From the IMG/VR virus record IMGVR_UViG_3300007517_000005, positions 21,512-85,511 of that record: DNA of 64,000 nucleotides. One strand, written 5' to 3'. The notes under the pieces are model-generated. The model was not told the origin of the DNA. It was given only the letters and a program-made list of their open reading frames with translations, and made no database searches. A program made the translations under genes and the position numbers. Each line of letters begins with the position of its first letter. The first letter of the stretch is position 1. Positions 2,578 to 63,356 of the stretch are shown piece by piece. This DNA comes from a virus.

Positions 2578-2748
2578 TGTACTCTCCGTACATTACACTC
2601 CCCTAGGGTCGCAGCCATGCGGCACTCCTTTGCACGGCACTACATTAGAGTATCACGTGCCCTCTATTTATCTCTCTTACCACACGCTAAATGCTCTATG
2701 TATGTATAATGTGTGGATTGTGCACATATTTATAACTATCAAACAAAC

Positions 2749-3138
2749 ATGAGACAATTACATTGGTACGCTGTCCAATACCACATACTGCAGAAGGCTA
2801 TGGCTGGTGTAGTAATAGATGTCCTTGTAGAGCATGCCCCCACCATTGCCTACCGCAAAGCTAAGGGTAAACAACAAATCATCTCACTACCACCAGATGA
2901 TGATATATACCTCTACGTATACAGCAGCATGATAATGGAAGGGTACATCTTAGTGCCCTCCCCAGATAATACAGTACATCTATGCAGTGGTGGTTCTGCT
3001 ATATATAATGTCACTGACTCTACCTGCACGTGTCCCGCCTATACCTATAAGGGGATGGCCTGTAAACATATGCAGATGCTTAAAGGTTATTCAGTTTATA
3101 GGCTTAGAGCTATGGCATTACGTTCTAAAGCTATGTAA
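2749..3138 (+). CDS. SWIM zinc-finger protein
   Basis: YNV...CTCPAYTYKGMACKH (CxC-x8-CxH); ATG at 2749 preferred, with TATAAT at 2705-2710 upstream. Confidence 0.7.
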   Translation: MRQLHWYAVQYHILQKAMAGVVIDVLVEHAPTIAYRKAKGKQQIISLPPDDDIYLYVYSSMIMEGYILVPSPDNTVHLCSGGSAIYNVTDSTCTCPAYTYKGMACKHMQMLKGYSVYRLRAMALRSKAM

Positions 3139-4237
3139 TGCCCCTATATAATCTACAATCATACACAGAACTATTTAGTACCCTGACCTCTATACAGTTT
3201 AATCCAGGCACTACACCCTTACTCATACCCTGTGGGAACTTGTACTCTGGCGAGTAACTGATATCTACACCTAAGCCAGCCTGTAAGTATAAGTAGAATA
3301 TCATACCAGGGTCTGCACCAGTAATAGTCCCTAACTCACCATCACTCTGGTACGTGTGTAGCTGCATCGTACCATCGAAGGCTATAGGATACCATACTGC
3401 TGTAGCCCCCGTATTCTTTACTTCATAGTCTACTAATTGTACCGATAACTTACTACTCAATGTTAAAGAGGTACCACTTACAGGGCCCGTGAATGTAGCA
3501 CCACTTAATGCAGCTAAGCCCGGCGCTTCTAATAGTACTGTATCCCCTGTCGTCGATAACCTTAATGTGGGGCCGGTGGTAATAGTTCTATACTGCAGGA
3601 TCGTGCCTACCTTCCCATTATATATACCTACACCTACCCCTACATTCACACCACTATTACTCTCTCCAGGGGGTGTACTAGTAATGCCCATCACCCTTCC
3701 TTTCGTATCAATGGATAGTGTAGGGTTTGTATACGTACCCGCTAACACTCCTGTGGGCTTTAGTAATGGGTTAGGGTATCCTCCTATTAAATCTCCACCA
3801 GCTAACCCTGAAGGGGGCATAGATGTTGGATAATCAGGTATAGATATACCAGGGGTGTGAGTGTGTGAGTCTGGTATTACTGATGGGGAAGGGTACTGCC
3901 CCGATAGATCACCACCTGCTGTACCACGTGGGGGTGCACTATCCCCTTCCATAGAGAACCTCACCCACGTTGGTGCTGTGTCTAGTAATACGAACACCTC
4001 GTCTGTGTCTACTTGTCTACACAATTTACCTACATCTGTATTGGTAGAGGTCACCGCCAATCTAGCTAACTTATTAGGGAACACCCACGCAAATGGGGCA
4101 TGTACTTCCTTCGGTGGTAAATCCCTATGATTTAATACATCAACACCCTGCGGTAATTCATTAGTAGGGATAGATACCTGTACATCCCTTACCTCACCCG
4201 TAGGTAATGTTACCTTAATAGTTCCTTCTATGATCAT
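3131..4237 (-). CDS. Virion structural / fibre-like protein
   Basis: Repeated AGGDLxGxYPxP and GTYTNPTLSIDTKGRV motifs typical of fibre proteins; follows the portal gene. Confidence 0.5.
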   Translation of the reverse strand: MIIEGTIKVTLPTGEVRDVQVSIPTNELPQGVDVLNHRDLPPKEVHAPFAWVFPNKLARLAVTSTNTDVGKLCRQVDTDEVFVLLDTAPTWVRFSMEGDSAPPRGTAGGDLSGQYPSPSVIPDSHTHTPGISIPDYPTSMPPSGLAGGDLIGGYPNPLLKPTGVLAGTYTNPTLSIDTKGRVMGITSTPPGESNSGVNVGVGVGIYNGKVGTILQYRTITTGPTLRLSTTGDTVLLEAPGLAALSGATFTGPVSGTSLTLSSKLSVQLVDYEVKNTGATAVWYPIAFDGTMQLHTYQSDGELGTITGADPGMIFYLYLQAGLGVDISYSPEYKFPQGMSKGVVPGLNCIEVRVLNSSVYDCRLYRGIT

Positions 4238-4285
4238 TTGATAGCCCTCTTAATAGACTGTGTTTGACTTAGGTTTAGATCTCTT

Positions 4286-5716
4286 TTATGAGCCTATACT
4301 AGGCTTTGTACTATCTACAGTCGGTACCGCTGCTGCTTGTTTACTACGCTTCTTACTCCTGGGGAATGAGAGTAGGTCACGTACATGATTATTATCTATA
4401 TCATCTGAAGAGTCTATGTACCCTTTATCGGTCATCATGGCTATTGCATCTACTAATACCTTAGTCTCACTCCACCTTATTGGTAACTGCGGTAAGTCCC
4501 CGTAATCGTACGCTGCAGGAACAACCCTAGGATCGAAGTTGTACTGTATTAACTGCGCTACTACTGATGATAGGAAGTCCTGCGTAACCCTCTGATATAT
4601 GCTCGTTATGAAGTGGTGGTACATCTCCACCTGCCTCTCCGATGACTGCCCTGAACCTAACCCACTATTAGTATCTCTCATTATTAAGTTGGGTATGTTC
4701 AATCCCGTCATCATCTGCAGGTCGCACATATTGATGGCATCCGTAAAGGCAGATGCAAAGTTACTACCGGTAGTCAATGCCTCTAACTTCACGGGCTGGT
4801 CTACACTTAACTGTGTCAACACTAACCCCACTTCACTCCTCATCTCCGATAGTTCCCTCGCTACTACCTCATGGTAGAACATAGGCCTATCCTCTGTAGG
4901 GTGCTGCTCATCTGATTGCTGTATTGGTACTATCGCATATACTATCGGGGTGCCATACCTATCCAATGCCACCATCATTAGATCTAATATAGACCTCTTG
5001 AATAAGTGGTACTCAAATACTGCTGTCAACATGGACTCACCCTCTGGGTTATTGCCCATCCCCTCGTGCACTGTGTGGCAGAACTTGCCCTTATTTAATC
5101 TAACCCATCCCCCTACTGTAGATGTATCCATGGGCTTGGGTACCCATATACCTGTCTGATTGAAGTCCATACCTACTGATGTAGTATTAGGTACTTTCTC
5201 CCCATGCGTTAACATACCATTAGCATTTACTACATACCTGACTTCTGTCGGGTGGTACGTTACTACATCAGTTAACCAAGTCTGTGCCTCAGATCTAGGT
5301 CCTATTTTACCACACCATATGGCTTCCCCTAACCCATCCCCCGCCCATAGACTTTGATACGTTAGATCCTTCAACCACTTCTTCACACCCCCCTTTAAAT
5401 TAGCTGCTACAAACTCCTCAATCATAGGGTGTGAGTGTGCGAAGGGGCCCGCCATTGCCGCTACAGAAGAAGCAATCATATTCAATGCCTCTTTAAAGAC
5501 TGGCTCATTGATCCTAGCGTAATCGTATGCCGCTAATAAACCAGGGTCTCTGCGCCTCCTCGTCTGGAATGTCTCCCCTGTAGATATTAAAGGGGTCGCG
5601 CGCCCCAACATACCCATCTTTCTTGGTTGTCTCCTTATTAGAGCACTAGTCCCCACGGGGGGTAATGTACTCAACCCTGATTCCTTACCGCCCGTCGGGT
5701 GCTGATCCATTATCAC
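4286..5716 (-). CDS. Portal protein (DUF935 / Mu gp29-like)
   Basis: NNPEGESML...FKRSILDLMMVALDRYGTPIVYA...GLGSG...LIQYNF pattern; 476 aa. Confidence 0.8.
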   Translation of the reverse strand: MIMDQHPTGGKESGLSTLPPVGTSALIRRQPRKMGMLGRATPLISTGETFQTRRRRDPGLLAAYDYARINEPVFKEALNMIASSVAAMAGPFAHSHPMIEEFVAANLKGGVKKWLKDLTYQSLWAGDGLGEAIWCGKIGPRSEAQTWLTDVVTYHPTEVRYVVNANGMLTHGEKVPNTTSVGMDFNQTGIWVPKPMDTSTVGGWVRLNKGKFCHTVHEGMGNNPEGESMLTAVFEYHLFKRSILDLMMVALDRYGTPIVYAIVPIQQSDEQHPTEDRPMFYHEVVARELSEMRSEVGLVLTQLSVDQPVKLEALTTGSNFASAFTDAINMCDLQMMTGLNIPNLIMRDTNSGLGSGQSSERQVEMYHHFITSIYQRVTQDFLSSVVAQLIQYNFDPRVVPAAYDYGDLPQLPIRWSETKVLVDAIAMMTDKGYIDSSDDIDNNHVRDLLSFPRSKKRSKQAAAVPTVDSTKPSIGS

Positions 5717-6828: not shown

Positions 6829-9800
6829 TTATCCTACCACGTTTACTTCCCAATCATCCCCTTCTGAGTAATCACTCTCACCACTTGGGTATGCACTGAA
6901 GTCCGTAGTGGGATTATCCATCACATACGATACCTCTATAGCCGCTCTCATAGGGTCTCCATCATCATCCATTACCGTACCCTCACCCACTTGCGCTAAT
7001 CTCTCCCCTATCATATCCTGCCTCTTTGATTCTGTTTCTGACATACTCCTCACGAAGCTCTCTACAATGCCTAGTGATGGTATTAAGTTAGTGCCATGCA
7101 CTGCTACCTCCCCCCCTATTACGGATGTGAGCATCCCTAGTACAGATGATAGTACTGCACCTCCTAATGTATTGGAGGCCGCCTTCCACCCCTTGTACCT
7201 ATCTACATCCATAGGTCTATCTACACGTAAGGGGCTAAACTTAGATAGTATCCTCTCCGCACCACCCATAATGGCAGGGGCTATTACCGCTGCACCCATA
7301 AAGAACCCTACCTCTCTACCAACCCATCTCCTTACCCACTCCCCCTCATCCTGTGAACCCTTAGACTCCGCATGTGCCATCCTCGCTCTAAATGATTGCC
7401 CTAGTACTGACGCCACACCTGGTCTACCCATTTGCGAGTACCCTAACATCGATACCGTCCCACCCACTACCTGCCCTATTGTATTCTCGTTGATAGAGCC
7501 GGTCGCCATTAGTGAACCTAAGAGTGTGAGCCCTGCACCCAATACCATGTCATTCATGTCGTGCATCCTACCTACGGCATCGTGCATCTCCTGACTATGC
7601 CTTGCATGACTAGCCGCCTGAGCTCCTGGATTCATGCCCGTTAGTACTGCCCTAGGGGGATTTGATGTTACTGCCTGTGCCCTCAAGGCAGCACTAATTA
7701 TAGGCGTAGACGCATCGCCCATCTCTCTACCCCGTATCTCTCTGGTCTCCGCCTGGTGCAGTGGATCTCTTGCCTCTACTATGGCCTCTTGTGACGCCTG
7801 CTGCGCTGTCATACCCTTGGATACCTTCTGCTCGGATAGTCTCCGGATGGTCGCTGATAATACTTCAGCTTCTGGTAATGATGCCCCTAACGCACTACTG
7901 ATTGTGCCAGCCCATGATTGATCTGAGTGCATGGTCTGACTATTGAACGCATCCCCTATATTATCTAGTAATCGTCTCCTCTGTCCTGTTGATGTAGCCT
8001 CTAATGCTACATCCAAGAACCCCATGGGGGAGCTATGCTCACCTATCACCTCCCCCGCGCTATTCCTTACATTGAACTTCCTATAACTCTCCCCCTCCCC
8101 TAATGGGTCATCATGGTACCCTACACGTATACCCCCATCCTTCTTATTGATGACCCTTACGCCTACACCACTCACACTATTCAACTCAAGGAAGCTCCTA
8201 CCACCTTGAGTCTGACCTAGTACCTGCTCCATACCTGTACTATCGCCCATGAAGTCCTTCATCACGGTCATGTAATGTGAGGCAGCCTCTGGGTCTATGC
8301 CATTCATACTACTATTCATTAGGGCTATCGTTATATCTGTATCCGCTAACTCCGTTGATATGCCTGACATTGTCTGAGACCTACCGCCCCCTAACTTCCC
8401 TGCCTTCTTCCTCAATGTCTCTAATGTGACGAACTGATTCAATCCCTCCCCTACACTACCGAAGATAGGGTCTGTCTGTTTCCTCCCTTCATCTACTAAC
8501 GCCAGCATTAAGGCCTTGTTCTTGCTCGAAGCTTCATCCCACCACTCATTCGCATCCTTTGATAGGGCCGCCCCTATGTCAGCCTTCAATGAGGGGTCGG
8601 ATATGAACTTCCTATCCATAGCCTCATCCCGATCCACATCCTCCCCAACCCCTAAGAAGCCACGTATGCCACTCCATATTGTATCTAGGAATGGTTGATT
8701 GTCTTTTGACCCTAGTTCGTAGCGGAAGGCAGTAATCGTAGCTCTCATGTCCCTCGCTACTTTGTACCTGACTACATCCCCAATAGTCCCATCTGATACA
8801 TCCACACCCCTATCGCGCATCTCACTACTCAAGCGCGTCATCTCCTCATTAGATGAGATCTTGTACTCCTTACTCAAAAATGCTATAGAACTATCATCTA
8901 TGCCTGTCAGGGGCTTACCATATACATTATTACTTGATGTCTCTATCAGGGTACTTAACTGCATGTATGACCGTAATCCAGGGCCAGGGCCTAACTTACC
9001 CGCCATCTCACTCAAGACTGCCCTCGCACTCGCATCATCCCCCTGGTCAATGTACTTCTGGTACTCCCCATGTGTCTTCTGTAAATCACCTAATACATCC
9101 GTGTCCCCCTTGAATTTGATACTATCCCTTAGTAGCTGCTGTGCACTCTTCATGAATGCCTGCAATGACTCCGCTCTCTTCGCCTCTATATGTACCTGAT
9201 TGAATGTCCCCTCTACATCATCTGCCATAGTGGTACCAGCATAGTACTCCTTCATACTATCCATCACGGTACTGCCACCCTCACCGCCTAGTACATGCGA
9301 TAGAGCTATTAAGGGACTATCGCGGAATAAGGTACCCACTAGGGCATTGTATGACTTACCTAATATGTCACCGCCCGCTACCCCTAATGTCTTCGTTAAC
9401 ATGTCATATACTGTGGGGCTCATTGATGCACCACTACCCATACCCATATACTTACTGTAATTGGATACTGCTACCTCTGATGATGATAGTTGGGCCGCAC
9501 CCTCCATTAGGCTACTACTTACATCCTGCTCAGGCTTAGCTAAGATAGACTCCATCATCTTAGTTATTACGTCTGCTCTCAATGATGGGTTGTTTGTTAA
9601 TAGCTCCCTGAAGTGATTATCAGACACATCCTTCAACATCACTGACGTATCTATATTGGAGGTAGATAATGCCTCACTTATTGATGCACCCTGCTTGAGT
9701 GATGATAATGCACTTCTGAAGTCCTCTGTTGCATGTATAGACTCCATCGTCGCATGTAACGCCATGATGTTATTATCGTGCGCTACCCCTTGTACCCCAC

Positions 9801-12800
9801 CGAATAATCCCCTCGATTGCTGTAAGTACGTAGGCAGTACCTCCATTGATATGGGCTTCTCCTGGTACTCACTCATGAATGCTTGCGATACCCCTAAGTA
9901 AGATGACACCTCCTTCCTCAGTAAAGGGTCATATGTCTGCGCTAATGTATCCCTCACCGAGGACATCTCCGCATCTATAGCTTTGATCCTCATGCCTATC
10001 TCCTCATTAGCTATGCGGTACTCATCACTCGCTAACCAATACTCATCTAAGTACTCACCCCCATTACTACTCGCCTGCTTCCTCAGCATCCCCTGCCTTA
10101 ATGTATTACTCTTCACCCTATCCGTTAGCCTCTGCCTATCATTCATGGCAGTCCCTATCTTGGAGAAGATTACCGTGAAGTTATCACCATCATAATCTAG
10201 TAACCCCAGTGCATGACCTGACATCACGGGCATTAACCCCAGGCTCTTATTGCGTCTCTCATCTAACTGTGACATCCCCTGACTCTCTAAATACACATTC
10301 AAGTTCTTCACTAACCCCACGGCTGTAAATTGCTGTCTCTGTAACTCCGTAGAACCGAATGGGGCTGACCTGAAGACTGTTGCCTGCAATACATCAGATG
10401 TATTTAGAGATACCTGTAATGACTCCATACGCGCTAAGGGGGCCTCAATAGATGTCCACTCACCCCTACCCTTATGTAATGTATCTAAGGCGCTACTTAA
10501 CTCCCTTAACTCTGTGCGGCTTGTCTCTATTAACTCCTTCTGGGAAGTGTCGTAACCATATGCACTATCTACTCTCTCAAGTGATACCAATAGTTCATCT
10601 ATAGATACCTTAGATCTATCCACAGAGTCCGCTAATAACTCCCTACTCTCACCCATCCCTAATCCCTGGAATAGACTCCTATCTATCCTATACGTCTCTA
10701 TACGCCCTCGTACACTACCCTGCCACTGCCCCATACTATCTGCATTGATAGCCCTCCCTAACTGTTCTATGAGGTTCTTATTAGGGACTACCTTCTCACC
10801 CGCTGCCATTGCCTGCTCACGGTTAGCGTACTCCTCACCACCTACCATGAATGATGACATCGTCTCCGTACGTGAGAACAACCCCTCCCACTCCTTCGTG
10901 GCGTTCTCTCTTCTTCTAGGGTCTGCTGCTATCTGCTGTCTCTCTACTATCTCTCTTAACCTCCCTGTCGGGAGTGCTAACGACCTTGTTACCTTATCCC
11001 TCTGCTTACCCGTCCACGATGACTCTACTGTCTCGTACTTCCTATAATAATTACCATCCCCTGACTCTGATACACGTAATTGACTATCGCCCCCTACACT
11101 GTATCTCTTGAACCAAGTACCGCCCTCTTCGTTATAACTACTGCTAGTGTTGAATGCTGTATCGAACTGCCTGCGTTGGTACTCAAGCTGCGATGTAACA
11201 TTACCCTCCGCCTCCCTTAACCTAGTCAGTGTTCCCTTCTTTAATGTTATATCCCCGTACGTGCCAGTAAAGGCCACACTCTGCTCTAGAACGCGCGATA
11301 ACCTCCCTAATGGTGGTAACTCATTAGCTGTTGTCTCTATTAATAAGGATGGTGTAATAGACGTATATGGGTCTATACGGTATGGCTTATCTTTACTAGA
11401 TACGTACTGGTCATCTAACGCTAACCTAGCACGCCTCTCACTACCCTCGTATACCTTCTTACTCCTTAACCATGACTCTAATGCTGGGGGGTTTACTGTC
11501 CTCTCGTAACTGTTCTCCCATACACCACTCGCACTACGCAAGACCTGCTCCCCTAGCTCTACTGCAAAGTAATTACCCTCATTACCCTCTCGTGCACCTA
11601 CTATATCTCTATAACTCCTCACACCTGGTAAGTTCGGGATATCTTCTGTACCCACACGGGAACGGGTATAATCCTTTATCTCCTGCGTTATACGGTCTGC
11701 TTGTACCTGGCTCACACCTATACCAGACCTTGTCTCCATTAGGGTAGATACATGGTTAGCATCTTGTATAGTCCATAACCGGGCCGCTATATATTCCTTC
11801 TGTAGTAAAGGGTTCCTTGTTATGTACTCTACATCCCCTTGCACTGTACGCAATAACATTGAGCCCTTCTCCCCCATACCACCCATTAAGGCATCCCTCT
11901 CCGCTTTCAACAATCGCATGCTATCCCTTGATGCAGGATCGGATAAGGAGCGTGTTACCTCCTCTAATCTCTGACGGCGTAGAGAATCACGTACATCCCC
12001 TGCACCACGCATACCTTCCTCGGGGGCTAAAAACATCCCCTGTGGTAATCCGAATGTGGCGGCGAATGTACCCACAAACCCACGTAATCTCGCCTCCATC
12101 TTCAAGCGTGTACCCGTTGATGCCTCCGCTATCCTCTCCACAATCCCATACGCGGTCACATAATAGTTCTGTAGTGCTTTCACCTCATCTGCTGTGAACT
12201 CTACAGACCCCGCCCCTGTTGCCTTTACCTTCGATAAGGTAGAGAATATATTACCTATTGCAGTTCCTGGACTGAATGCAGATGCTAGTGTTAGTGTACT
12301 CCTCACTAATTCATCTGTATACGATCCATACTGGATACCATATGTTCTTAAGTCCTCTGCACTGGGTAGGTAGAAACTAGTACCTGGTGATACATCGTCG
12401 AACCTCGCAATGATGCGCCCTGACTCCGATGGCATACTATCGAATACCACCGCTGGTAAATGATATATACCTCTCTCATGCGACATCTCTCTGGCTATAG
12501 CTTCTGCCTCCCCCACACCAAATGCCTTAGTCGCTAGTAACTCATATCTCCTACCCACATCCTGTATGGCTGATAGGGATGTACTATACTCACCCCTCCA
12601 CATAGAACCTAACAATGATTGCGTGTGTATACTACTGGGATTACTAGCCTCGAATAATAATGTACTCAACTCACTCCCTAATGTGCGTACATCCCCCACA
12701 CCACTTGCTAGGGCAGTCACTCTCTCTTCAATAGCTATCTGTACCGCCCCACCATAATCTTTATATGACTTCTTCAGGGCCGTTATATCCTCCATCCCTG

Positions 12801-22188: not shown

Positions 22189-23437
22189 ATGAAAAGAGCA
22201 CTCGTTGAGAGACATACTGTACTCCTCGCTACAGTCGGCAGTATCGCATATGGTCTGACATTATCTACCTCCGATAAGGATATCAAAGGCATCTGCATCG
22301 CACCCGCTGAATATTACTACGGTCTCAAACAGTTCGAGCAGAAGGATAAAGGCTGGGATGATACAACAGATCTCTCAAGTGGTCTATTCCCAGTCCTTGA
22401 TGGTATTAAAGACTGCACTATATATGAGCTCAAGAAGTTCCTCCGCCTGGCCATGAATAATAACCCCATAGTACTGGAGATGTTATGGCTCAACGATTAT
22501 GAGTACTTATCTACAATAGGGCGTGCACTTGTTCGTAGTAGACATCTATTCCTATCCAAGAAGGTCAAGCATACCTTCCCAAGGGTCGTAGCCTACGGCA
22601 CCTACATAGGCTACGCATACGCACAACTGAAGAAAGTATCTACACATAAGTCATGGTTACTCAACCCCCCTACTGCTAAGCCTCAAGCTAATGACTATGG
22701 CTTAGATGATGCACACCTCCCTGTCGGGAGTGCTAACGACCTCCCTGTCGGGAGTGCTAGCAACGCTGTGAGCGTAGCGACTAACGACCTCCCCTTAACT
22801 AAGAGTCAGATGGGCTCATTCCTAGAGTACATACTAGTGCTCACTAAAGATAGTATTGAATTCATGGAACCCGTGGCTGAACTCAAGAAGCTACTACTCG
22901 AAGATATAGACCTTACCGCTATCGTTAAACAGAGACCACTAACTACTGATGTTATACCCTATGTGCAGGCATTGACACGTGGTAGTACAAACTTCATGCA
23001 ATTACTACAAGCTAGTCAGGCTTATAGGAAGGCTATCTCTGAGTGGGATAACTACCAACAATGGAAGACTAATAGGAACCCAAAGAGGGCCGCACTTGAA
23101 GCACATTGTGGGTTTGACTCTAAACATGCTGTGCATAGTGCCGCATGGCTGCGACTGCCAAGGAGTGTACGTCTATTACGTCAAGGTCTTGAGGTGTTAC
23201 TACATGGTACCCTCACTGTTGATAGGCGTGGTTGATAGGCGTGACGCGGGTGATGCACCGCAGTTACTCGCTATACGTAATGGTGAGTATACCTATGAGC
23301 AAGTCATTGAGATAACTGATGCCCTATTCCTAGAAGTAGATGAGGCTTATAAACTATCCACTCTACCTCATGGGGTGCATCAGGAACATATAGATATACT
23401 GTGCACACAGTGGGTGCGAGATAGTCTGAGTAATTAA
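22189..23437 (+). pseudogene. Predicted nucleotidyltransferase (YcgL/RlaP/NrdC.11-like), frameshifted near the 3' end
   Basis: GSIAYGL..SDKDIKG, NNPIVLEML, GYAYAQ, RNPKRAALE..GFDSKHA..RLL; the C-terminal DAGDA..LLAIRNG is in another frame owing to a 13-bp tandem duplication (23218-23243); three in-frame element insertions. Confidence 0.85.
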
Positions 23438-23771
23438 CACTACGTTTGACCTACCTTTCTGATGTAGAGCACATACCATTACATAATAGATACAATGTCA
23501 CATTGGCCGCAGACCCTAATATTGATTACGTTATGTGGAATGAGTGAGGCCCTGTAGAACATACATGCGGTGTCCCTATACAGATTAGAGTAGTAGGAGA
23601 TGACGCACCTGTATTATTAACTGCCTCCACTCATCGTTAAACCCAGTACATCATAGATGTCCAGCATCTTTGATGCAGTAGCTATTAAAGCATTAGCATA
23701 CACTATCCATAGTTGTGGTAGTGATTCTGTACCACCACACCTCATTGAAGAGTTTAGAGGGGTGGTACATA

Positions 23772-24257
23772 TTACAATCCCTGACCCGTCGGTTTTATGA
23801 TAGCTGCCCCATTAACAGAGGCTAGTAATATAACCGTATCGGGTGCTGCATTGGGGTGTATTATAGTTGTACTAATCCCCCTACCAGCAGCCACATTACC
23901 CGCCTTAGTCAATGTCTCGCACACACTCACACCATCTATCATGGGCGTTATTAACCACCTACCATACTTATCCTTACCGTGTAATAAGAACTTGATCTCT
24001 GTATCTATAGGGAGGGCCGCACTTAATCTACCCCTAGCCTCTACGCCAGCTACTGTCCCCATCTCCGCTGCATAGAACTTCCATAGTCTGCACCTTACCT
24101 TCTTCAAGGTTAGCATCCCATCCCCCTGAATGTAGTAATCAGGTGGTAAGATAGATATACAGGGCATCACTATGGGCGTTAGGTTTATATCTAAGATTAA
24201 TGTATCCCCGTCCACTATGCGCTTGACTATCCCTGCGTGAGCTACTATCTGTTTCAT
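23772..24257 (-). CDS. Thermonuclease (SNase-family) protein
   Basis: RIVDGDTL...RCRL...AAEM...GKDKYGRWL motifs. Confidence 0.82.
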   Translation of the reverse strand: MKQIVAHAGIVKRIVDGDTLILDINLTPIVMPCISILPPDYYIQGDGMLTLKKVRCRLWKFYAAEMGTVAGVEARGRLSAALPIDTEIKFLLHGKDKYGRWLITPMIDGVSVCETLTKAGNVAAGRGISTTIIHPNAAPDTVILLASVNGAAIIKPTGQGL

Positions 24258-24276
24258 ACCCTATACCCTTAAGAAC

Positions 24277-25674
24277 ATGACTGATCTGATGACTATGACC
24301 GCACTGGCCTCGGACTGTACCCCACAACAGTTGGCACTAGATTTCATTACCTATAAGGGTTCGCAGTGGGTGCCCATTACTCGTATATACCGCAACACAA
24401 ACTATTACTACAATAATCAGAAGTACCTATCACAACATGGGCAATCCCTTACCCTCACAGGTGTTGAACTACTAGAGTATAAGAACTTATACCATGCACA
24501 GGTAGGGTATAAGTTGAAAGGGCCTCAACTTACTATCGTAGATACCGCTAAGGCAACAGCTTACTTACATCTACTCAATCTTAAATCACACACCCCTTTA
24601 GGGACCGTGAACGACACTTGTGGGCAATCGTGGTTACATGACACTGCTACAGTAACTGATATCACCTCTACCTTAGAGGCATTATTAGAACAGCCAGTAG
24701 ACTCGCTACGCTACCCAGCGTTGCTAGGCTGTCACAATACTATCCTTGCTGACTTGATGCGTATTACACAGGATAAGGGATTGCATTGGACTCCCTATGT
24801 TAATGGCATATACTTACCTATGGTCGAGGCATCACTCGCTAAAGGTATGGAGAAAGATGATTACTCTTCCAATAGCTGGGGCCCTAAATTACCTGGCACC
24901 TCTTACCTACTCAAAGGGGATTACTTACGTACCTTCAAAGATAACTACATTCGTGAGCATGGGTCGTGGCCTTACCCGCGTACCCGCTCCCTCTGTATAG
25001 GGGATTGGGAGCATGCCTATGGTTACTTAGTGCAAGGGAAGAGTACCACTGCTAATGCCTTCCAATCAATGGGCGCTAATAGCATACAGCAAATAGTTAC
25101 TATAGCCCCACCCTGTCCTGAGACGTGGGCCTCTGAAGAGACATTGGTGGATCGTGTGTTTAAGTTGATGGAACTATCCCCCATCAGTATGCAGCGTGAG
25201 GCTTGCTTCAGTAACTCACTCGCTAATACACCCACTACTAGACGTGTAGATGCCATTGAACATGTGCACTCCCCTGATGGTATTAATCGTGTACATGTAT
25301 ATGAGTTCAAGAAGACTAGGATTACAGGGGCCGATGTCTACGATACCGTAGCTGGTAAAGGGTACCTACATCTAGTAAAGGAACAGTACCCTACCTCTAA
25401 AGTGTGCCTATTCATGGTCGGTAATGCTATCGATCCCATGGCACAGCGATTACTTGAGTGCATGTCAGGTGTTGTCTACTTACCACTGAGTACACTACTC
25501 AATCGTATACTCGCCTCCATCATTAACTCCTGGCCGCAGGAAGGGCATTACCAATTACGTAAGCACTACCTCAGTCAGTTCAGTGACATACTCCCGCAGG
25601 AGATGCTATCCGGCCCAGTGCAACACCCACAGATAATAGCTACGTACATTAAACCTCGTACCATAACAACATGA
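24277..25674 (+). CDS. Protein with C-terminal PD-(D/E)xK nuclease-like domain
   Basis: RRVDAIE...VYEFKK; contains a 27-bp in-frame family A element (24701-24727). Confidence 0.55.
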   Translation: MTDLMTMTALASDCTPQQLALDFITYKGSQWVPITRIYRNTNYYYNNQKYLSQHGQSLTLTGVELLEYKNLYHAQVGYKLKGPQLTIVDTAKATAYLHLLNLKSHTPLGTVNDTCGQSWLHDTATVTDITSTLEALLEQPVDSLRYPALLGCHNTILADLMRITQDKGLHWTPYVNGIYLPMVEASLAKGMEKDDYSSNSWGPKLPGTSYLLKGDYLRTFKDNYIREHGSWPYPRTRSLCIGDWEHAYGYLVQGKSTTANAFQSMGANSIQQIVTIAPPCPETWASEETLVDRVFKLMELSPISMQREACFSNSLANTPTTRRVDAIEHVHSPDGINRVHVYEFKKTRITGADVYDTVAGKGYLHLVKEQYPTSKVCLFMVGNAIDPMAQRLLECMSGVVYLPLSTLLNRILASIINSWPQEGHYQLRKHYLSQFSDILPQEMLSGPVQHPQIIATYIKPRTITT

Positions 25675-25904
25675 CAGTTACACCTCACAATAGAGAGATG
25701 ATCCTGAAACTATGGCTTGTACAGCGTACAGATGGCGTAGAAGAAGATGAAATAGATTCTATGGTCATCGCTTCTCCCACTAGTGAAGATGCTATACGAC
25801 TGTTCTACAAGGCCTGTGCACATAATATATGGTCCCGTCAAAGGGATCTACTCACTACCTGTATTGGTACGAGTAACGATGATAAGCCCTGTATAATACT
25901 CTAA
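25671..25904 (+). CDS. Small protein, paralog of the repeats in 33714-34235
   Basis: LWLVxRTD...MV...CIG pattern shared. Confidence 0.55.
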   Translation: MTVTPHNREMILKLWLVQRTDGVEEDEIDSMVIASPTSEDAIRLFYKACAHNIWSRQRDLLTTCIGTSNDDKPCIIL

Positions 25905-25907
25905 GGT

Positions 25908-26639
25908 ATGACAGATATGCAACATTGGCAGAAGGAACATCCACTATACGCATTGAGCGTACGTAACCCTAAACCTAATAGGAAGTTACTATATGAAGGG
26001 GAAGACTTTGTAGTTAGATGGTCTAAGTATTATATAAAGACGTATGCACGCTGGGATGATGAATTACGTAATGGTAGTAATACCTTTCATGTTCACACTG
26101 ATGTCTATCATGCTAATTCTGATGATAAATCAGAATGTGTATTCCTATCTGATGTACCTGAGCAAGTGGCACGTATACCTCAACATGTACGTGCCCTTCA
26201 GAAGTGGAATGGGTGCCATTCTATAGGCCCCTGGTACTACTTAGAGAATACCGTGTATCTAGCTGGTAATAGAGACTATAATGGATTACTTGAAGGGGAA
26301 GTTAGACAGTTACGTAATGGGAAGACTGGTCAGCTAGTATGGCAACTCTCAGTCCTAGATGATAAGGGCAATGAGGTACCACGTCATACCCTCCAATCTA
26401 TTAACCCAGAAGGTGATACCTGCCCGACTACTGAATATAAACTAGTGTGGCGGCCATGGAATCAGATAGGTAAAGGTAAAGAGAGACAGTTAAATGCTGC
26501 TAGAGAGGTCGCTATATGGCCTGATGCTACTGATGAACAATTGATGTCTGATGACCTGAGACAATTGCTGATTGATAGACACCCTGCCCTAATACAAGAG
26601 TTCCATGGTGTGATAGTGGGGCTGGGGTTCACTTGGTAA
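25908..26639 (+). CDS. Hypothetical phage protein
   Basis: 243-aa ORF in a co-directional run. Confidence 0.6.
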   Translation: MTDMQHWQKEHPLYALSVRNPKPNRKLLYEGEDFVVRWSKYYIKTYARWDDELRNGSNTFHVHTDVYHANSDDKSECVFLSDVPEQVARIPQHVRALQKWNGCHSIGPWYYLENTVYLAGNRDYNGLLEGEVRQLRNGKTGQLVWQLSVLDDKGNEVPRHTLQSINPEGDTCPTTEYKLVWRPWNQIGKGKERQLNAAREVAIWPDATDEQLMSDDLRQLLIDRHPALIQEFHGVIVGLGFTW

Positions 26640-26684
26640 TATTACACGATACTAATTAGGGGCACTGCACCCTAGGAGAAAGCT

Positions 26685-28724
26685 ATGACTACATATGACT
26701 TCAAAGCCTTTGCTACCGCTATCAATGATCACTTCAAGTTGATGGCTAACTATAACCTATATACCACTACTGCTTCTAAAGATGATCTATACGACGCATA
26801 CCTACAAGCATACCCTGATGGTACTAACCCTATATACGTGAATCGTACAGAGTATGATTGCTCTACCTGTAAGGAATTCATACGTAACATTGGGGGTGCG
26901 GTTGCTATCGTAGATGGGGCAATAGTACCTGTGTGGGATGTGCCGGGGCTTGAGTACCCATACAATGTGGTTGCTGAGACTATGTCCGCTTACGTTACAT
27001 CACACCCTATTAGCTCTGTCTTCTGCCTTAAAGAACTATCCTATGGTGCACCACATAGTAAACAGTTATTACAGGGTGGGGATATACGCACCTGGTACCA
27101 CTTCTATGCGCGTGTAGATGCTAAGTACCATTCCAATACCCCGGCACAAGTTATAGGGGACTCTATTACTGCTATGCAAGTCCTACGTAGAGGATTGAGT
27201 GAGTTAACCCTGGACTCTATCACTACTGTACTAGAACTCATAGATACTAACTCTATCTATAGAGGGGCTGAACATAGGGCCGCTCTCGTAGCCTTTAAGA
27301 CACTTAAGGAGTCGTATGACACTACACCCGCAGAACAACAGGAACTACTGCTATGGCTTAATGTGACACACCATAATGCACGGTTCCGTAATACTGTCAT
27401 CGGTACATTAGTACAAGACCTATCAGATGGTGTGGAACTAGAGAAGGCAGTACACTCCTTCGAGACTAAGGTTGCACCTACTAACTATAAGAGGACTAAG
27501 TCCCTTATTACACCCGGTATGCGCGATGGTGCCCTGAAGACCGTGCGGGAGTTGGGGCTTGAACCCTCCCTCAGTCGTAGACATGCACGTGTATCTGATG
27601 TCTCCATTAATGATGTCCTGTGGGTTGATAATGCAGTACGGGGGCTTATGAAGGAAGGCGGTATAGCTGCACTACTGCAGACACAAGTTAAGGTTAAACC
27701 CCCTAACTTAGATAGTGCTACCCCTATCAGTATTGAAGACTTCATGTCCTCTGTACTCCCACAGACTACTACGCTGCAGGTATTACTGGAGAGTAGATTA
27801 CTAGGTAACCTAATGAGCCTCACTGCACCTTGTGATGTGAGCTCCCCGCGTATCTTTAAGTGGGGTAATAACTTCGGGTGGTCATACCGTGATAATGTGG
27901 CCGATAGTATTATCAAGCAGAGAGTTAAAGGGGCGGGGGGTAATGTTACCGCCCCCTTTAGGGTTAGCCTCGCATGGTTTAACTATGATGACCTAGACAT
28001 ATACGTTTATGTACCTGGGGGCGGGTGGCCTATATGCTTCATGAATAGGACTGTGGGCACAGGTACATTGGATGTAGATGCAAATGCAGGTCGTCGTCGC
28101 AGTAGAACACCCGTCGAGAATGTATGTTGGACCGCTCCGATAAATGGCACCTATCAGGTACACGTTAAGAACTTCAGTAAGAGAGAGTCTATTGATGTAG
28201 GCTTTACCTTAGAAGTAGAATCCATGGGGATTATCTCTACATACCATTACGACCGCCCTGTAGGTGATCGCTGTATTGTACATTGCCTAACCATTACCGT
28301 CAGGGGTGGACAGGTAACTGATATCACAGCCGCCCCCAATGTAGAAGGTAATTCATCTTCCACGACTGAGTGGGGCCTCATGACACAGACACTCGTGAAG
28401 GTAGATACCGTAATCCTCAGCCCTAATTACTGGGGGGATAATCATAGTGGTAATAAGCACTGGTTCTTTATCCTACATGAGTGCCTCAACCCTGAGCCTA
28501 CTAGGGGTATCTATAATGAGTTCCTGCGCCATGAACTAGAATCACATAAAAAGGTGTTTGAGGTGCTCGGTGATCTTACTAAAGTACCGCCTGTGCCTGA
28601 ACAACTATCAGGCCTAGGGTTTTCGTCTACACGTAACGATAAGCTTAAAGTCATAGCTACTGGCATCAAAGCTAACAGCGCCGTGAGCATATCGACTAAA
28701 GCCTATGAGATTAACTTCTCGTAA
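26685..28724 (+). CDS. Conserved phage protein with YfaP/DUF2135-like domain
   Basis: 679 aa; YDCSTCKEFIR N-terminus; SLAWFNYDDLDIYV...LDVDANAG...PVENV; AGGAG RBS. Confidence 0.6.
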   Translation: MTTYDFKAFATAINDHFKLMANYNLYTTTASKDDLYDAYLQAYPDGTNPIYVNRTEYDCSTCKEFIRNIGGAVAIVDGAIVPVWDVPGLEYPYNVVAETMSAYVTSHPISSVFCLKELSYGAPHSKQLLQGGDIRTWYHFYARVDAKYHSNTPAQVIGDSITAMQVLRRGLSELTLDSITTVLELIDTNSIYRGAEHRAALVAFKTLKESYDTTPAEQQELLLWLNVTHHNARFRNTVIGTLVQDLSDGVELEKAVHSFETKVAPTNYKRTKSLITPGMRDGALKTVRELGLEPSLSRRHARVSDVSINDVLWVDNAVRGLMKEGGIAALLQTQVKVKPPNLDSATPISIEDFMSSVLPQTTTLQVLLESRLLGNLMSLTAPCDVSSPRIFKWGNNFGWSYRDNVADSIIKQRVKGAGGNVTAPFRVSLAWFNYDDLDIYVYVPGGGWPICFMNRTVGTGTLDVDANAGRRRSRTPVENVCWTAPINGTYQVHVKNFSKRESIDVGFTLEVESMGIISTYHYDRPVGDRCIVHCLTITVRGGQVTDITAAPNVEGNSSSTTEWGLMTQTLVKVDTVILSPNYWGDNHSGNKHWFFILHECLNPEPTRGIYNEFLRHELESHKKVFEVLGDLTKVPPVPEQLSGLGFSSTRNDKLKVIATGIKANSAVSISTKAYEINFS

Positions 28725-36424: not shown

Positions 36425-36436
36425 AAAGAGAGAGCC

Positions 36437-37300: not shown

Positions 37301-37351
37301 GTAAACAATCTATATAGTAATACACAATGCAAGCAGTAATGGAGGGGTGAT

Positions 37352-38254: not shown

Positions 38255-38326
38255 TGCTGGGTAGCACAGTGGCAGTGCGCTTGATTGTTACTCAAGATGT
38301 CGTAGGTTCAATCCCTACCCCAGCAG
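38255..38326 (+). tRNA. tRNA-Asn (GTT)
   Basis: Cloverleaf: TGCTGGG/CCCAGCA acceptor, CTTGA-TTGTTAC-TCAAG anticodon arm, GTAGG-TTCAATC-CCTAC T arm; no encoded CCA. Confidence 0.9.
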
Positions 38327-38331
38327 TTATA

Positions 38332-38363
38332 TAAAGCCGGCCTTTAATGTGGGGCCGGCTTTA
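38332..38363 (+). terminator. Hairpin after the tRNA
   Basis: TAAAGCCGGCC...GGCCGGCTTTA. Confidence 0.55.
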
Positions 38364-38457
38364 TAGTGCCGTGACTACGCCCCTTCAAGATAGTAATGGA
38401 GAACTCTGATGCAATTATCTGATGAAGAAGAGCAGTTAATATAAAGGTAATACAGCC

Positions 38458-39013
38458 ATGAGTAATAGATGGAAGACACCTATACATTTAGCAACGCTGT
38501 GAGTGTAGCGATTTAGAGTACTGGAATAACTTTATCCCATACGAGGATAAGGTAGCTGTACTCAATAGTAATACCAAGCAGGATCTAATAAGAGCTATGG
38601 TAGATTACCAGTACAATACATTCTGCAGGGCCATGGAGAGGCAGATACCAGTGAGTCAACCCAGCGGTAAGGTAATACCCTACATAGGTTCATTCTGGAG
38701 GGATATAGAGTGGAGTAGTAGTCGTCAGACTGTGCGTGACGGTAGTAGCACTAATATACACATAGGAAGAATAGTAGAAGATGGTAATGAGCCTCCTGAA
38801 CAAGGGTCGCCCTTCATAGGCTTCATGGCCAATAATAAGTGGGGGTACCCTGAACGTACACTCACTGCTGAGGAGAGGGCACATGTCATCTCCCTATTAT
38901 ATACAGCCATGCTCTCTGATAATAAGGTTGTCAAGGCAGGTACACTACAACACTTATGGGAGTACATGCAGACGTTGAGTGTAGAGTATGAGAAAGGGTA
39001 CGGGCCCCAGTGA
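38458..39013 (+). pseudogene. Gene frameshifted by a 25-bp family A element
   Basis: Removing 38491-38515 (ATTTA duplicated) joins MSNRWKTPIHL in frame to EYWNNF... and ORF 38597-39013. Confidence 0.7.
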
Positions 39014-41059: not shown

Positions 41060-41246
41060 TCAAGAGTGTAGGCTTAGTTATAGGAGTATGTGTTGGTTTG
41101 TACCTCACATACTCCTTGAAAGTATATCTGGGTATCAATCTAGATATAGCAGGGGATGAGCACTTCCCTTCAGTCATTGAGAGGAAGTCTCACGGAGTGA
41201 TTAAATGTAGATGGTTCCCCAACCATCACCATTGTAAGTAGTAATA

Positions 41247-41279
41247 TAGTAGGCCCTACCCATGGGCCTATTATTGTAC
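41247..41279 (+). promoter_or_regulatory. Conserved intergenic hairpin motif, copy 1
   Basis: TAGTAGGCCC-TACCCAT-GGGCCTATTATTGTAC. Confidence 0.75.
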
Positions 41280-41296
41280 TCTATCAATTTAGTCCC

Positions 41297-41911: not shown

Positions 41912-41930
41912 GCTCTGTATATTTATCTAG

Positions 41931-41963
41931 TAGTAGGCCCTACCCATGGGCCTATTATTGTAC
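41931..41963 (+). promoter_or_regulatory. Conserved intergenic hairpin motif, copy 2
   Basis: Identical to copy 1. Confidence 0.75.
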
Positions 41964-41983
41964 ATACTCAAAGGATAAAGATC

Positions 41984-43251: not shown

Positions 43252-43255
43252 TTAG

Positions 43256-43288
43256 TAGTAGGCCCTACCCACGGGCCTATTATTGTAC
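43256..43288 (+). promoter_or_regulatory. Conserved intergenic hairpin motif, copy 3
   Basis: One loop substitution relative to copy 1; precedes the polymerase gene. Confidence 0.75.
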
Positions 43289-43309
43289 TTACAACAATCA
43301 ATGAATATC

Positions 43310-60218: not shown

Positions 60219-60353
60219 CTAGCAACGCTGGGAGCGTAGCGACCTAGCAACGCTCAGAATGCTGTTGTCCTCTCTCCGAAAGTGCCGTGGGCCGCGACCC
60301 TTGGGGAGAGCACAGCGAGGAAGCATCCTGCGAGGAGTGAACGTAGCGATCTA
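60219..60353. mobile_element. Composite A + A[D[E-reverse[B]]]
   Basis: Same layers as 57128 but E lies in the opposite orientation inside D. Confidence 0.78.
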
Positions 60354-61113
60354 AAGCCCTTGTAAATGCAGATAGGTGATAATCAACTAAGTAAAGGTGA
60401 AAGATATGTCTATTACATACAGCTTGAATGTCAAAGGCCACTTGTGCATGCACAGTGAAGAGGGCCGGCCCTTTACACTATGTGGGGCACAGTACATCTA
60501 CACCCCTCCCTTGGGGAGGTGCTAGCGACCTCCTGTATCAAGCAAACTGAAACGTTAGCGGCCCTTAATGCCTCTGTGCAATATGGGTCGCCCTACAATA
60601 ACGTAGAAGGTAATGATGATGATGGATAATATACCCACACACACAACGCTCTAAAAACCTATAGTACCCATACACAACAAAATATGGTAGTATTATGGAG
60701 TTCAACTACAGAGGTTACAGAGGGCCGTATATGTGCGAAGAAGGGGTATACTTTGGGCAGGTGTTAAACACAGGCGCAGAGTTAATCTCGTTCCAAGGAG
60801 ATACAGTAGCTGGTGCATACTCTGCCTTCAAAGATGCAGTAAATAATTACCTAAACTAACAACAAGCAAATGACAACAAAACCAACAGATAAAGAAATTG
60901 ATGATAGACTAGCCCAGCTAGAAGATGCACTGAATAGGCATAAAGAGGCTCTAACAGTGTATGAAGAAGAGATCAAAGGACGCGAAACTGGTAAAACAAC
61001 CCCAGCATCTAACACCTCTGACACTTCTAAAGATTAAATGTAAGGCTGCATACTACCCGTTTGAATGTGTGTATGCAACCCTACTTTAGAGAATGTGAGC
61101 GACCCTTATACAA

Positions 61114-61947: not shown

Positions 61948-61949
61948 AC

Positions 61950-62810
61950 ATGTTATCCCTATTCAAACCACAGACAATGTCCGCATCCCAAATGTTAGAC
62001 AAACTAACTAAGTTACGTACCCAACGTGCCCAGTTAGTGATACAGTTATCTAACGTAGATAATGAAATTGCCCCCCTAGAGGCATCCCTCAATAAGTTCA
62101 TCAACCCCCAAGCAACACATACCCAACCAGTTGCCACCCCTATTAAAGTTACCACACAAGTTAACAACACCCCGTTGGTCGCTAAAAGAGACCTACAAAC
62201 ATGCACACAAACAAACAAGCCAATAACACAGCCAGTAACACAAGCACCACTCTCTACTATCGAAACTGTACCTAATAAACCAATGCCGCCTACGCAACTT
62301 GCAACTACTGCCGCCCCTAAACAAACAGCAACAAGTGCAAGTACAGTAGTACCCGGCATGGAAGCAATGGTAAGGTCACGAGCCCAGTATCACACAGAGG
62401 AACTACAGATCACGTCTGTGGTAAACTCAGGTGTGATTGAAATGTATAACCATTACTTAGGTAATGGAGTCGCACCTCTAGAAGGGTATACAGTTACTGA
62501 CCGTGTATCAGCCGCAAGTAAACCATACAAACTAATGGCAGTACCAGCACTGAAGATCACATGCACGTTAGTACAACCTTTACCCGAAGGTATGATAGAG
62601 AAGAAGAGAGTAATCAGTGAGTGGCTAGAAGCTAATGACTACCTCCGTAGTGAAGACCCTAACAAATTCATATTCGAGACAGAGTATGATAAATGGGGTC
62701 ACCGGTACTCGCCATACCTATCAATTGATAGCAAAGGCTGTACACTATACATACGTGTAGGAGCAGTGTCGTTAGATAGCCCACAACCCTGGCCCATACT
62801 AATTGCTTAA
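61950..62810 (+). CDS. Hypothetical protein with Pro/Thr/Gln-rich linker
   Basis: ATG at 61950 just after the repeats. Confidence 0.6.
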   Translation: MLSLFKPQTMSASQMLDKLTKLRTQRAQLVIQLSNVDNEIAPLEASLNKFINPQATHTQPVATPIKVTTQVNNTPLVAKRDLQTCTQTNKPITQPVTQAPLSTIETVPNKPMPPTQLATTAAPKQTATSASTVVPGMEAMVRSRAQYHTEELQITSVVNSGVIEMYNHYLGNGVAPLEGYTVTDRVSAASKPYKLMAVPALKITCTLVQPLPEGMIEKKRVISEWLEANDYLRSEDPNKFIFETEYDKWGHRYSPYLSIDSKGCTLYIRVGAVSLDSPQPWPILIA

Positions 62811-62891
62811 CGTACACTAAGACAACTGTGTAGTATAGCAACATAGCTGAATGTTACTGGTAATAGATGCCGCCATCTAACTACCACAATC

Positions 62892-63296
62892 ATGTCCCTG
62901 ACCATCGCCTCCAGCTTAGAAGATCTGAACAACACACCTTACACGTACGAGTTCAACAAACGTCTACATCTACTAAAGTACTTCCTGTATGAGGTACTAG
63001 GGCCGCAACATATGCTAGCAGTAAATCACATGAATAATGAGATACTACTAGCATCACAAGTGCCTGGAAGAGGTATGGGATCAGCTATTGCCTTAGTACT
63101 ATCACCTAAATATAGTACTAAGATAATACTGCATGACCATCCTAATGTAACGCAAAGACTTATCATGTACCTACTACGTGGTATCGGTGAAGAAGTACTG
63201 CGCCCAATAGACGTAGAAGCTGGCGAGTCCAAAGCACTAGAACTTATGAGAAGTGCACTAACCAGAGAATACTACCGCACTCCACAAGGGTCGTAG
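62892..63296 (+). CDS. Hypothetical protein
   Basis: ORF; its stop is supplied by a partial family B element. Confidence 0.55.
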   Translation: MSLTIASSLEDLNNTPYTYEFNKRLHLLKYFLYEVLGPQHMLAVNHMNNEILLASQVPGRGMGSAIALVLSPKYSTKIILHDHPNVTQRLIMYLLRGIGEEVLRPIDVEAGESKALELMRSALTREYYRTPQGS

Positions 63297-63356
63297 CCAT
63301 ACAACACCCACACAAACTAAACACTACTGGGGCTCCCATGCCCCTCCGTAAATACA

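Follow-up and report, generated by a model that had tools for sequence, protein, structure and literature searches.

Short hairpin elements in a phage genome: empty sites, strand-specific targets and candidate routes of movement

How hairpins of only 24 to 29 bp come to stand at more than 30 loci of one phage genome, within genes, within a structured RNA and within one another, is the question raised by a stretch of 64,000 nucleotides (hereafter the window) that spans bases 21512-85511 of the 85,511-base virus record IMGVR_UViG_3300007517_000005 in IMG/VR. A preliminary description, made from the letters of the window alone, had named five hairpin families, A to E, at these loci, and we found all of the motifs where it had placed them: an iterative census returned 39 copies in the record, whereas a shuffled genome gave none. 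Copies of A, B and C move to new sites, use a strand-specific target that recurs at their 3' end, carry a hairpin that matters on one strand and pass a reading-frame filter when they enter genes. We are highly confident that A, B and C are true mobile micro-elements, and at 20-29 bases these hairpins are among the smallest mobile DNAs seen. Coordinates below are positions in the window unless stated.

Empty sites in genes, an RNA and phage populations

A unit of family A comprises a 22-nt core, made up of an 8-bp stem with one A.A mismatch, a 3-nt loop and GAC, followed by a triplet that matches its flank. Units of B have a core of 23-24 nt followed by ACT, with the exception of an in-frame copy of 27 nt that carries ACCT instead, and units of C have a 20-nt core followed by ACCT. 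The tail TA(N)CGACC is common to A, C and inverted B, which bears out the shared CGACC core noticed earlier. Junctions vary by a single base, A being 24 nt long in a nucleotidyltransferase gene and 25 nt elsewhere, and B either 26 or 27 nt.

Five independent comparisons gave empty sites, in relatives of a TnpB gene remnant, a guide-type RNA and the nucleotidyltransferase gene, and again among independent sequencing runs. The TnpB remnant at 31737-32124 retains only the RuvC and zinc-ribbon part and aligns to an open reading frame (ORF) of 561 amino acids in Microcoleus phage My-WqHQDG. The Pfam match to PF07282 (zinc-ribbon) ends at an A insert (31966-31990), the removal of which restores TKLGSSKIFRCP; the homologue in the Microcoleus phage (OR578706) reads AAGCTAGG followed directly by CGGTTCC, where the window holds 25 extra bases. 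The restoration of TnpB proposed near position 31969 is thus borne out by an uninterrupted homologue. Besides the A insert, the remnant is also broken by a deletion of about 40 nt.

The segment 28785-29054 is a HEARO RNA (Rfam RF02033, 123.7 bits). In the covariance-model alignment, an A copy (28854-28878) and a variant, A' (28995-29019), are both printed as lower-case inserts, and removal of the former restores the HEARO consensus. Restoration on removing A had been seen beforehand in an RNA near position 28860, which was then taken to be a TnpB omegaRNA; the restoration stands, and the RNA is of the IscB type. Two paralogous HEARO copies in another phage contig, G001, lack A': their empty site reads CTAG-CCTA-ACAAG, and in the filled site CCTA stands on either side of the insert. 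From the G001 copy at 18.9 kb the B found at 29135 in the window is missing as well, the empty site being TTGA-GAGT-ACAC; this G001 copy carries an A-type insert of 25 nt of its own.

The HEARO RNA itself lies in a unit of about 540 bp (28754-29292) with no adjoining IscB ORF. This unit is absent as a block in the related strain of run X2, reaches a word depth of some 9000 in run X1, where its surroundings are at about 12, and is represented by two more units in G001, which precede small ORFs that differ from each other; it has the appearance of a mobile guide-RNA unit that lacks a protein.

The RlaP-like nucleotidyltransferase gene (22189-23235) contains B, B3 and C copies, B3 being a B-type variant. 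Neither the peptide FPRVVAYGT, encoded by B, nor SAAWLRLPR, encoded by B3, is present in any of its nine homologues (9/9), one of which is 93% identical. This 93%-identical homologue (P0002), whose empty sites were compared at the protein level only, has a single C (LPVGSAND) where the window has C followed by a second C split by A, and the more distant homologues have none. Copies within confirmed genes are 24 or 27 nt long, lengths of 25, 26 and 29 nt being common elsewhere, from which it follows that only frame-preserving versions persist in genes. A 13-bp tandem duplication (GTTGATAGGCGTG twice) at 23213-23238 shifts the frame of the nucleotidyltransferase, the last 65 or so residues of which continue in ORF 22979-23437; either the gene was disrupted very recently or the sequence is in error here.

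Contigs of independent public runs were compared with positions 18500-38499 of the window. Run X1, probably the source sample put through another assembler, reproduced the window with 0 differences over four copies. At 22573, exactly 27 nt, corresponding to the B copy, are absent from contigs of runs X2 and X3, and one contig from X3 (depth 436 of 970) lacks exactly 24 nt at 22757, corresponding to the A inside C; other X3 contigs keep these 24 nt, so both forms coexist in that sample. Since the copies are reproduced by independent runs and assemblers, we rejected the adapter or assembly artefact of which the preliminary description had warned. At a greater distance, the relative L122, with a portal 85% identical to that of the record, matches the record collinearly along 21 kb (70-78% DNA identity) and is free of copies across this stretch, against four or five in the record. 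A search of viral contigs with the nucleotidyltransferase as query gave no close relative. Exact copies of A, B and E are also present in the contigs G001 and G002 (51 and 62 kb), which share the HEARO unit and the micro-elements with the record, and no protein except ORFs that run over elements.

Target sites and the strand of the hairpin

A lies directly 3' of YTA, B of ACT or ACCT, and C of ACCT, and in each case the target recurs at the 3' end of the copy. Across 22 distinct flanks the triplet before A is CTA in 14, TTA in 5 and GTA in 1, and it covaries with the triplet at the end of the copy, CTA going with CTA and TTA with TTA, the latter in two independent events (the HEARO copy and the copy at 38491). 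The flanking duplications described earlier are accordingly real, and covariation of this kind makes the A triplet either a true duplication or a sequence set by the same recognition event. Not one of 21 A copies stands in the opposite orientation relative to the triplet, which implies that the target is read on one strand.

For the strand of the hairpin we aligned 32 B-type copies from four records, 28 of them distinct. Pairing is intact in 96.4% of the cells of the B stem and 16 cells are compensatory, values that none of 500 shuffles attained and that collapse in shifted registers; the compensation consists of C-G for U-A at pair 5 and of G-C for A-U at pair 6. At pair 2, 27 of the 28 distinct copies retain a U.G wobble. 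As the other strand would turn such wobbles into C.A mismatches, the hairpin matters on one strand, as single-stranded DNA or RNA, and not as a cruciform. Folded as DNA, single units are of modest stability (in kcal/mol, A -5.8, minus-strand D -5.6 and E -6.0; z about -2).

Although true duplications of 3-4 nt and the terminal 8-bp inverted repeat of A recall miniature inverted-repeat transposable elements (MITEs) of the DDE type, in which the stem arms would be terminal inverted repeats and a DDE transposase (IS5/Harbinger-like for YTA) would make a staggered cut of 3-4 bp, ends that lie 3 nt apart cannot build a double-stranded synaptic complex. MITEs, moreover, duplicate a fixed length and insert in either orientation, whereas B duplications are 3 or 4 nt long here and A is never inverted relative to its non-palindromic target. 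With wobble pairs that are strand-specific and no DDE family among the 66 ORFs of the record, we regard this origin as very unlikely.

The loop of A seems to vary with its end. Copies with a loop that starts with A (AGG, AAG) end in TTA and those with a loop that starts with G or C end in CTA, the exception being the copy at 38491. This rule derives from the copies at 19696, 28854 and 38491 together with copies in contigs L109 and G001, which represent only two independent events, and might hint that the first base of the loop contacts the cleavage triplet.

Copies, orientations and nests

Searching at up to 3 mismatches gave 7 matches for A, 4 for B, 5 for C, 2 for D and 1 for E, and 0 in shuffles. 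For the iterative census, a Hamming search at up to 5 mismatches was run, each match was removed, which un-nests the sequence, and the search was repeated. The window holds 33 of the 39 copies found in this way, and the same census of two other phage contigs gave 8 and 7. Reading the sequence of dense regions adds about 12 copies that are degenerate, indel-bearing, halved, fused or outer members of nests, and a fair total for the record, with degenerate, nested and fused copies included, is about 45. The most repeated 11-mers of the genome in a k-mer scan all fall within these hairpin units. Both orientations occur, as first described, with no clear bias along the genome (in the iterative census, B 9:8, A 10:5 and C 5:3).

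Many copies are nested, which we write with braces around the inner element. At 57131-57287 the sequence resolves, correct to the base, into A{D{E{B{A{D}}}}}, a nest of five levels; at 60222-60353 an A precedes A{D{E{B}}}, in which E and B are inverted; and at 22719-22790 a C precedes C{A}. A nested in C in this way is found at three independent places. The elements contain each other's targets, namely CCTA in the B loop, GCTA in C (used three independent times) and ACT in E, and because they carry targets for one another, nests arise. D was seen solely in the A loop and E solely in the D loop, which is also true of G001 and G002, where C{A{D{E}}} is present. The motifs that had been listed as families D and E exist, but as inner modules of A; instead of being elements in their own right they may represent long forms of A, and they may not move by themselves. 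With split copies included, the window holds three E and not one.

The distribution of copies bears on a possible function. Most lie between genes, with a concentration among the small genes of 54.5-60.6 kb, and the phage has other conserved hairpins at 41.2-53.1 kb, as would suit promoters, terminators or RNA-processing sites that recombination has spread and selection maintains, rather than selfish DNA; yet copies stand in both orientations within coding sequence, structured RNA and a pseudogene, nest five deep and are dispensable in close relatives, and we find this explanation scarcely credible.

The less regular copies bear on a process that needs no dedicated enzyme, in which hairpins stall the replisome and the nascent strand switches template via 3-5 nt of microhomology, copies the hairpin and returns. 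Switching out and back would leave the unit flanked by microhomology, and the target does resemble the last 3-6 nt of the element, with orientation tied to target; the one-base variation of junctions, the half elements and fusions, the loop-flipped A' and the tandem duplications of 13 and 32 bp nearby are also in keeping with this process. It should, however, copy many kinds of sequence and not eight families, and it accounts poorly for the few families that are letter-identical in unrelated phage contigs, for a wobble pair conserved on one strand and for a collinear relative that has similar replication genes and no copies. We therefore judge template switching improbable.

The copies of the window, with their strands, are as follows.

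2600-2626, plus: B2 copy of 27 nt, intergenic, upstream of ORF 1336-2577, its site in an alignment gap with the relative L122
5761-5787, plus: B2-type copy, intergenic, adjoining the portal gene
10963-10986, plus: C copy of 24 nt, in frame in the minus-strand ORF of 3897 amino acids (peptide RSLALPTG), in a stretch without alignment to L122
18606-18632, minus: B2-type copy, intergenic
18934-18958, minus: A copy with GTG loop, followed by a 32-bp tandem duplication
19199-19225, minus: B2 copy from the census
19282-19305, minus: C copy from the census
19696-19720, minus: A copy with AGG loop and TTA end, from the census
22577-22603, plus: B copy of 27 nt including the ACCT duplication, read in frame as FPRVVAYGT within the RlaP-like nucleotidyltransferase gene
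22719-22742, plus: first C copy of the nucleotidyltransferase gene, 24 nt (LPVGSAND)
22743-22790, plus: second C copy of this gene, split by a 24-nt A (22760-22783)
23137-23163, minus: B3 copy of 27 nt, in frame in the nucleotidyltransferase gene (SAAWLRLPR)
24707-24733, minus: degenerate A-like copy with a 1-nt indel, from the k-mer scan and sequence reading
28854-28878, minus: A copy in the HEARO RNA, TAAGT on either side, common to the window and the two G001 copies
28995-29019, plus: A' copy in the HEARO RNA, perfect stem, CCC loop, CCTA duplicated
29135-29160, minus: B copy downstream of the HEARO match
31423-31447, plus: A copy, exact consensus, intergenic
31966-31990, minus: exact A copy that breaks the zinc-ribbon part of the TnpB remnant
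37403-37426, minus: C copy of 24 nt in ORF 37352-37720; runs X2-X4 carry 27 other letters in place of 37407-37478
38491-38515, plus: A copy with ATTTA on both sides, downstream of a tRNA gene
54532-54555, minus: degenerate C copy from the census
54953-54981, plus: chimeric B-like copy (B 5' part and inverted B2 stem), from sequence reading
55503-55621: degenerate cluster, a C hairpin fused to an inverted B2-like stem, with a B-like copy at 55595-55621
56379-56430, plus: A{D}, with D (56387-56413) in the A loop
56966-56991, plus: exact B copy of 26 nt in the small ORF 56761-57099
57131-57287, plus: five-level nest A{D{E{B{A{D}}}}} (outer D 57139-57270, E 57148-57254, B 57163-57240, inner A 57182-57233, inner D 57190-57216)
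57452-57478, minus: degenerate B2 copy from the census
57620-57652, plus: fusion of CGACC, a CTTAAGG hairpin and a C-type tail
58043-58068, minus: degenerate B copy from the census
58341-58357, plus: right half of A alone
58724-58747, plus: fusion of a CTTAAGG hairpin and an A-type tail, directly upstream of an HNH gene remnant
59316-59369, minus: D{E}, a D whose loop holds an exact E (59332-59360); the composite overruns the HNH frame at the 3' end of that frame
59385-59433, plus: C{A}, in which an exact A (59402-59426) occupies the GCTA site of a degenerate C
60222-60246, plus: exact A copy in tandem with the next composite
60247-60353, plus: A{D{E{B}}} with E and B inverted, B at 60281-60306
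60504-60531, plus: C-like variant, a CCTCCC-TT-GGGAGG hairpin with the tail TGCTAGCGACCT
63279-63310, plus: degenerate B2-like copy

The 32-bp tandem duplication (AGCGTTGCTAGGTACACTCACCATGACTATA twice) occupies 18950-19013 and starts within the A copy at 18934; run X2 has 765 other letters in its place. Units of B and B3 alternate head to tail with a period of 53-54 nt at 2745-2880 of contig L109 and at 13175-13228 and 9013-9066 of the genome (upstream of the window), and the 5' parts of B3 (CCTTGG) and B (CCAAGG) are reverse complements of each other, so that adjacent units could pair. In a scan of the window with Rfam, the HEARO RNA and one tRNA gene (38255-38326, 67.7 bits; the A copy at 38491 lies 165 nt downstream) were the only matches above gathering score, and the repeat units A-E match no curated family at that score.

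Host, mobiliser and relation to known elements

The record is about 51% complete by CheckV, has a GC content of 46.6% and encodes capsid, Mu-type portal, tail sheath and baseplate proteins, from which the source phage is myovirus-like; two of its ORFs are giant (3897 and 3253 amino acids). Its host is probably a filamentous cyanobacterium, judging from the closest homologues of the nucleotidyltransferase, which are from Symploca, Phormidium, Oscillatoria, Planktothrix and Nostoc, and from the 78% DNA identity of the TnpB remnant to Microcoleus phage My-WqHQDG. Near-identical phage DNA was found in freshwater, lake, ice and salt-lake metagenomes of several studies.

Outside phage contigs we detected the elements at no more than chance level. 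Of 185,579 prokaryote species, each represented by a single genome, none contains the exact 23-mer of A; a search for A that allowed 3 mismatches gave one match (with 3 mismatches) in 401 cyanobacterial genomes, against two for a reversed-pattern control; C gave none in 151 genomes of an order containing a Microcoleaceae genome; and A, B and C gave none in Nostoc punctiforme NIES-2108 and eight other named strains, including Scytonema, Chlorogloeopsis, Cylindrospermum and Calothrix. Within IMG/VR and JGI metagenomes the families are confined to a handful of contigs from two other samples. A match to a 17-mer of C in the IMG/VR contig G408 (58% GC), which holds no other element, was rejected as chance. 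A motif search of the full record and of candidate hosts, as proposed in the preliminary description, thus recovers the 39 copies of the record and nothing above chance in the cyanobacteria searched, and the elements appear to be phage-restricted so far, with the reservation that the true host may not be among the genomes sampled.

The phage elements are SDR-like micro-elements with apparently new sequences, likened by architecture and description, not by sequence, to the small dispersed repeats (SDR) SDR1-8. In PMC3116915, PMC4390886 and PMC13756078, SDR1-8 are cited from Nostoc punctiforme and its relatives (Elhai et al., 2008, Genome Res 18:1484); PMC4390886 has the 21-nt SDR5 inserting precisely between nucleotides 3 and 4 of HIP1, GCGATCGC, an 8-base palindrome abundant in cyanobacterial genomes, and as late as 2026 SDR5 is described as being of unknown function. 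Both kinds are dispersed, many-copy units (a reported 21-27 nt for SDR, and 24-29 nt here, with cores of 20-24 nt and at least 39 copies in 85.5 kb), with a hairpin backed by compensatory changes, as in the B stem above, with nested insertions at precise short targets, as in the five-level nest and the three C{A} sites, and with no known mobiliser. They differ in that SDR reside in the chromosomes of heterocyst-forming cyanobacteria, whereas A, B and C are in phage contigs and absent from the chromosomes searched; in that SDR5 targets HIP1, whereas the phage record has 0 occurrences of this octamer; and in the clear 3-4-nt duplications and in-frame copies in protein genes seen here.

This likeness raises the possibility that SDR machinery of the host, possibly working via RNA, acts on phage DNA during infection and that the phage is a passive target. 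Small size, nested insertions and a hairpin with compensatory changes and G.U pairs are what SDR reportedly display, the nucleotidyltransferase and the TnpB remnant indicate filamentous cyanobacterial hosts, and the phage fragments contain no mobiliser gene. The host chromosome should then be full of the families, though, and none was found in the cyanobacterial genomes searched, nor does the close phage relative have copies, which makes a host-driven origin doubtful.

We screened this record, G001 and G002 for enzymes (about 200 kb in all); each is a fragment, 30-51% complete, which makes absence weak evidence. No Y1/HUH transposase (no match to PF01797) or reverse transcriptase was detected in the three records, and no integrase among the 66 ORFs of this record, leaving these fragments without the co-occurring reverse transcriptase, HUH or recombinase gene for which the preliminary description had suggested looking. 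As all records are fragments, the enzyme may lie in the missing half of the phage or in the host. The record does have two HNH_3 endonuclease frames and one SWIM-finger ORF. The HNH_3 frame at 58731-59402 (223 amino acids, open from stop to stop) has an element directly upstream and is overrun at its 3' end by D{E}, which is translated; in two other element-bearing contigs a 60%-identical HNH homologue is followed by a C element. HNH genes are frequent in phages. This endonuclease is a weak lead as a candidate mobiliser, against which stand an ATC where the 60%-identical L111 and L112 have ATG, the overrun end and the absence of a frame of this type from G001 and G002. The second HNH_3 ORF, at 32332-33093, is intact. 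The TA(N)CGACC tail common to A, B and C is compatible with one enzyme for all three, the shared mobiliser first proposed, and is not proof of it.

On balance, we consider it probable that A, B and C are non-autonomous micro-insertion elements, each a 20-24-nt core of hairpin and tail, that are moved in trans via a single-stranded hairpin. The intermediate would be this hairpin, most likely as single-stranded DNA and possibly as a minicircle; a trans-acting enzyme, none of which was detected on this fragment, would cut and join it; and insertion would take place 3' of a short motif that matches the cleavage site of the element itself, the hairpin being recognised as in IS200/IS605 or REP-RAYT. 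By analogy, peel-and-paste chemistry like that of IS200/IS605 or REP-RAYT may be at work, a proposal that we make tentatively. It is favoured by one-strand insertion 3' of the target, by the size of the circle, since a single-stranded circle of 25 nt is physically possible and a double-stranded synapse of 25 bp is not, and by relics of that transposon family in the genome. A phage-encoded enzyme of an undescribed kind that moves single-stranded hairpins of 20-24 nt 3' of targets of 3-4 nt is conceivable, if on the unlikely side; if it exists, these would be the smallest autonomous-system transposons known, and a phage of about 170 kb would become a model for an 18-year-old SDR question.

Several observations weigh against movement in trans via a single-stranded hairpin, or against its peel-and-paste form. 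None of the three fragments has a candidate enzyme, weak as this absence is; each unit has one hairpin, whereas IS200/IS605 elements need two, at their left and right ends, and make no duplication; junctions that vary by one base are untidy for precise HUH chemistry; and the flanking triplet depends on the site. D folds best on the strand opposite to the surrounding A, so the strand argument rests mainly on B. Presence/absence polymorphism could stem from precise slippage loss between flanking repeats rather than gain, and the genome of the true host may lie outside those sampled. The earlier picture of ultra-small elements spreading actively in a phage stands as far as elements that are mobile or recently mobile; active spread is not separable from slippage loss.

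By the features compared, the phage elements are not REP/REPIN, IS200/IS605-type elements, MITEs or Rickettsia palindromic elements (RPE). They share with REP/REPIN-RAYT and IS200/IS605 systems short imperfect hairpins of a single strand, strand-specific insertion by a short motif and, probably, service in trans, and the IS200/IS605 accessories, a TnpB remnant and HEARO RNA, are in the same phage genome. For REP/REPIN-RAYT, however, a RAYT (Y1) gene is expected, and PF01797 gave no match in three fragmentary contigs; REP are extragenic, whereas copies lie inside genes here; REPIN are inverted doublets, whereas B and B3 form direct tandem arrays; and a GTAG or CGTC head is not conserved, GTAG varying among the B variants. 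The insertion after YTA, ACT or ACCT is strand-specific, as for IS200/IS605 (PATE-like) elements, which go in 3' of a fixed tetra- or pentanucleotide and leave no duplication; here the motif recurs at the element end and varies with the site. IS200/IS605 elements also have distinct left and right end hairpins, in contrast to the single hairpin per unit seen here. RPE are selfish palindromes that survive in frame in protein genes, and the Correia elements of Neisseria duplicate a TA target. The in-frame copies in protein-coding genes resemble RPE in this respect, but RPE and Correia elements are 100-150 bp long, whereas the phage elements are of 24-29 bp, nest in one another and reside in a phage.

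How SDR-type elements move has been an open question since 2008, and the phage offers empty sites, polymorphism within a sample, an element-free relative and no host copies among the genomes sampled, narrowing the search for a mobiliser from a chromosome of 9 Mb to about 170 kb of phage DNA and the infected cell. Such elements can rewrite phage proteins by adding peptides of 8-9 residues, break guide RNAs and nucleases of the IscB/TnpB type and fragment short-read assemblies at predictable places.

Other repeats of the window are outside the mobile families. Three 69-nt tandem repeats lie at 53187-53415, directly downstream of the 3253-amino-acid ORF, and a different conserved hairpin (GGCCC...GGGCCTATTATTGTAC) is present in four copies (41244-41283, 41928-41967, 43253-43292 and 53100-53139) that flank this ORF and its upstream genes and are probably regulatory.

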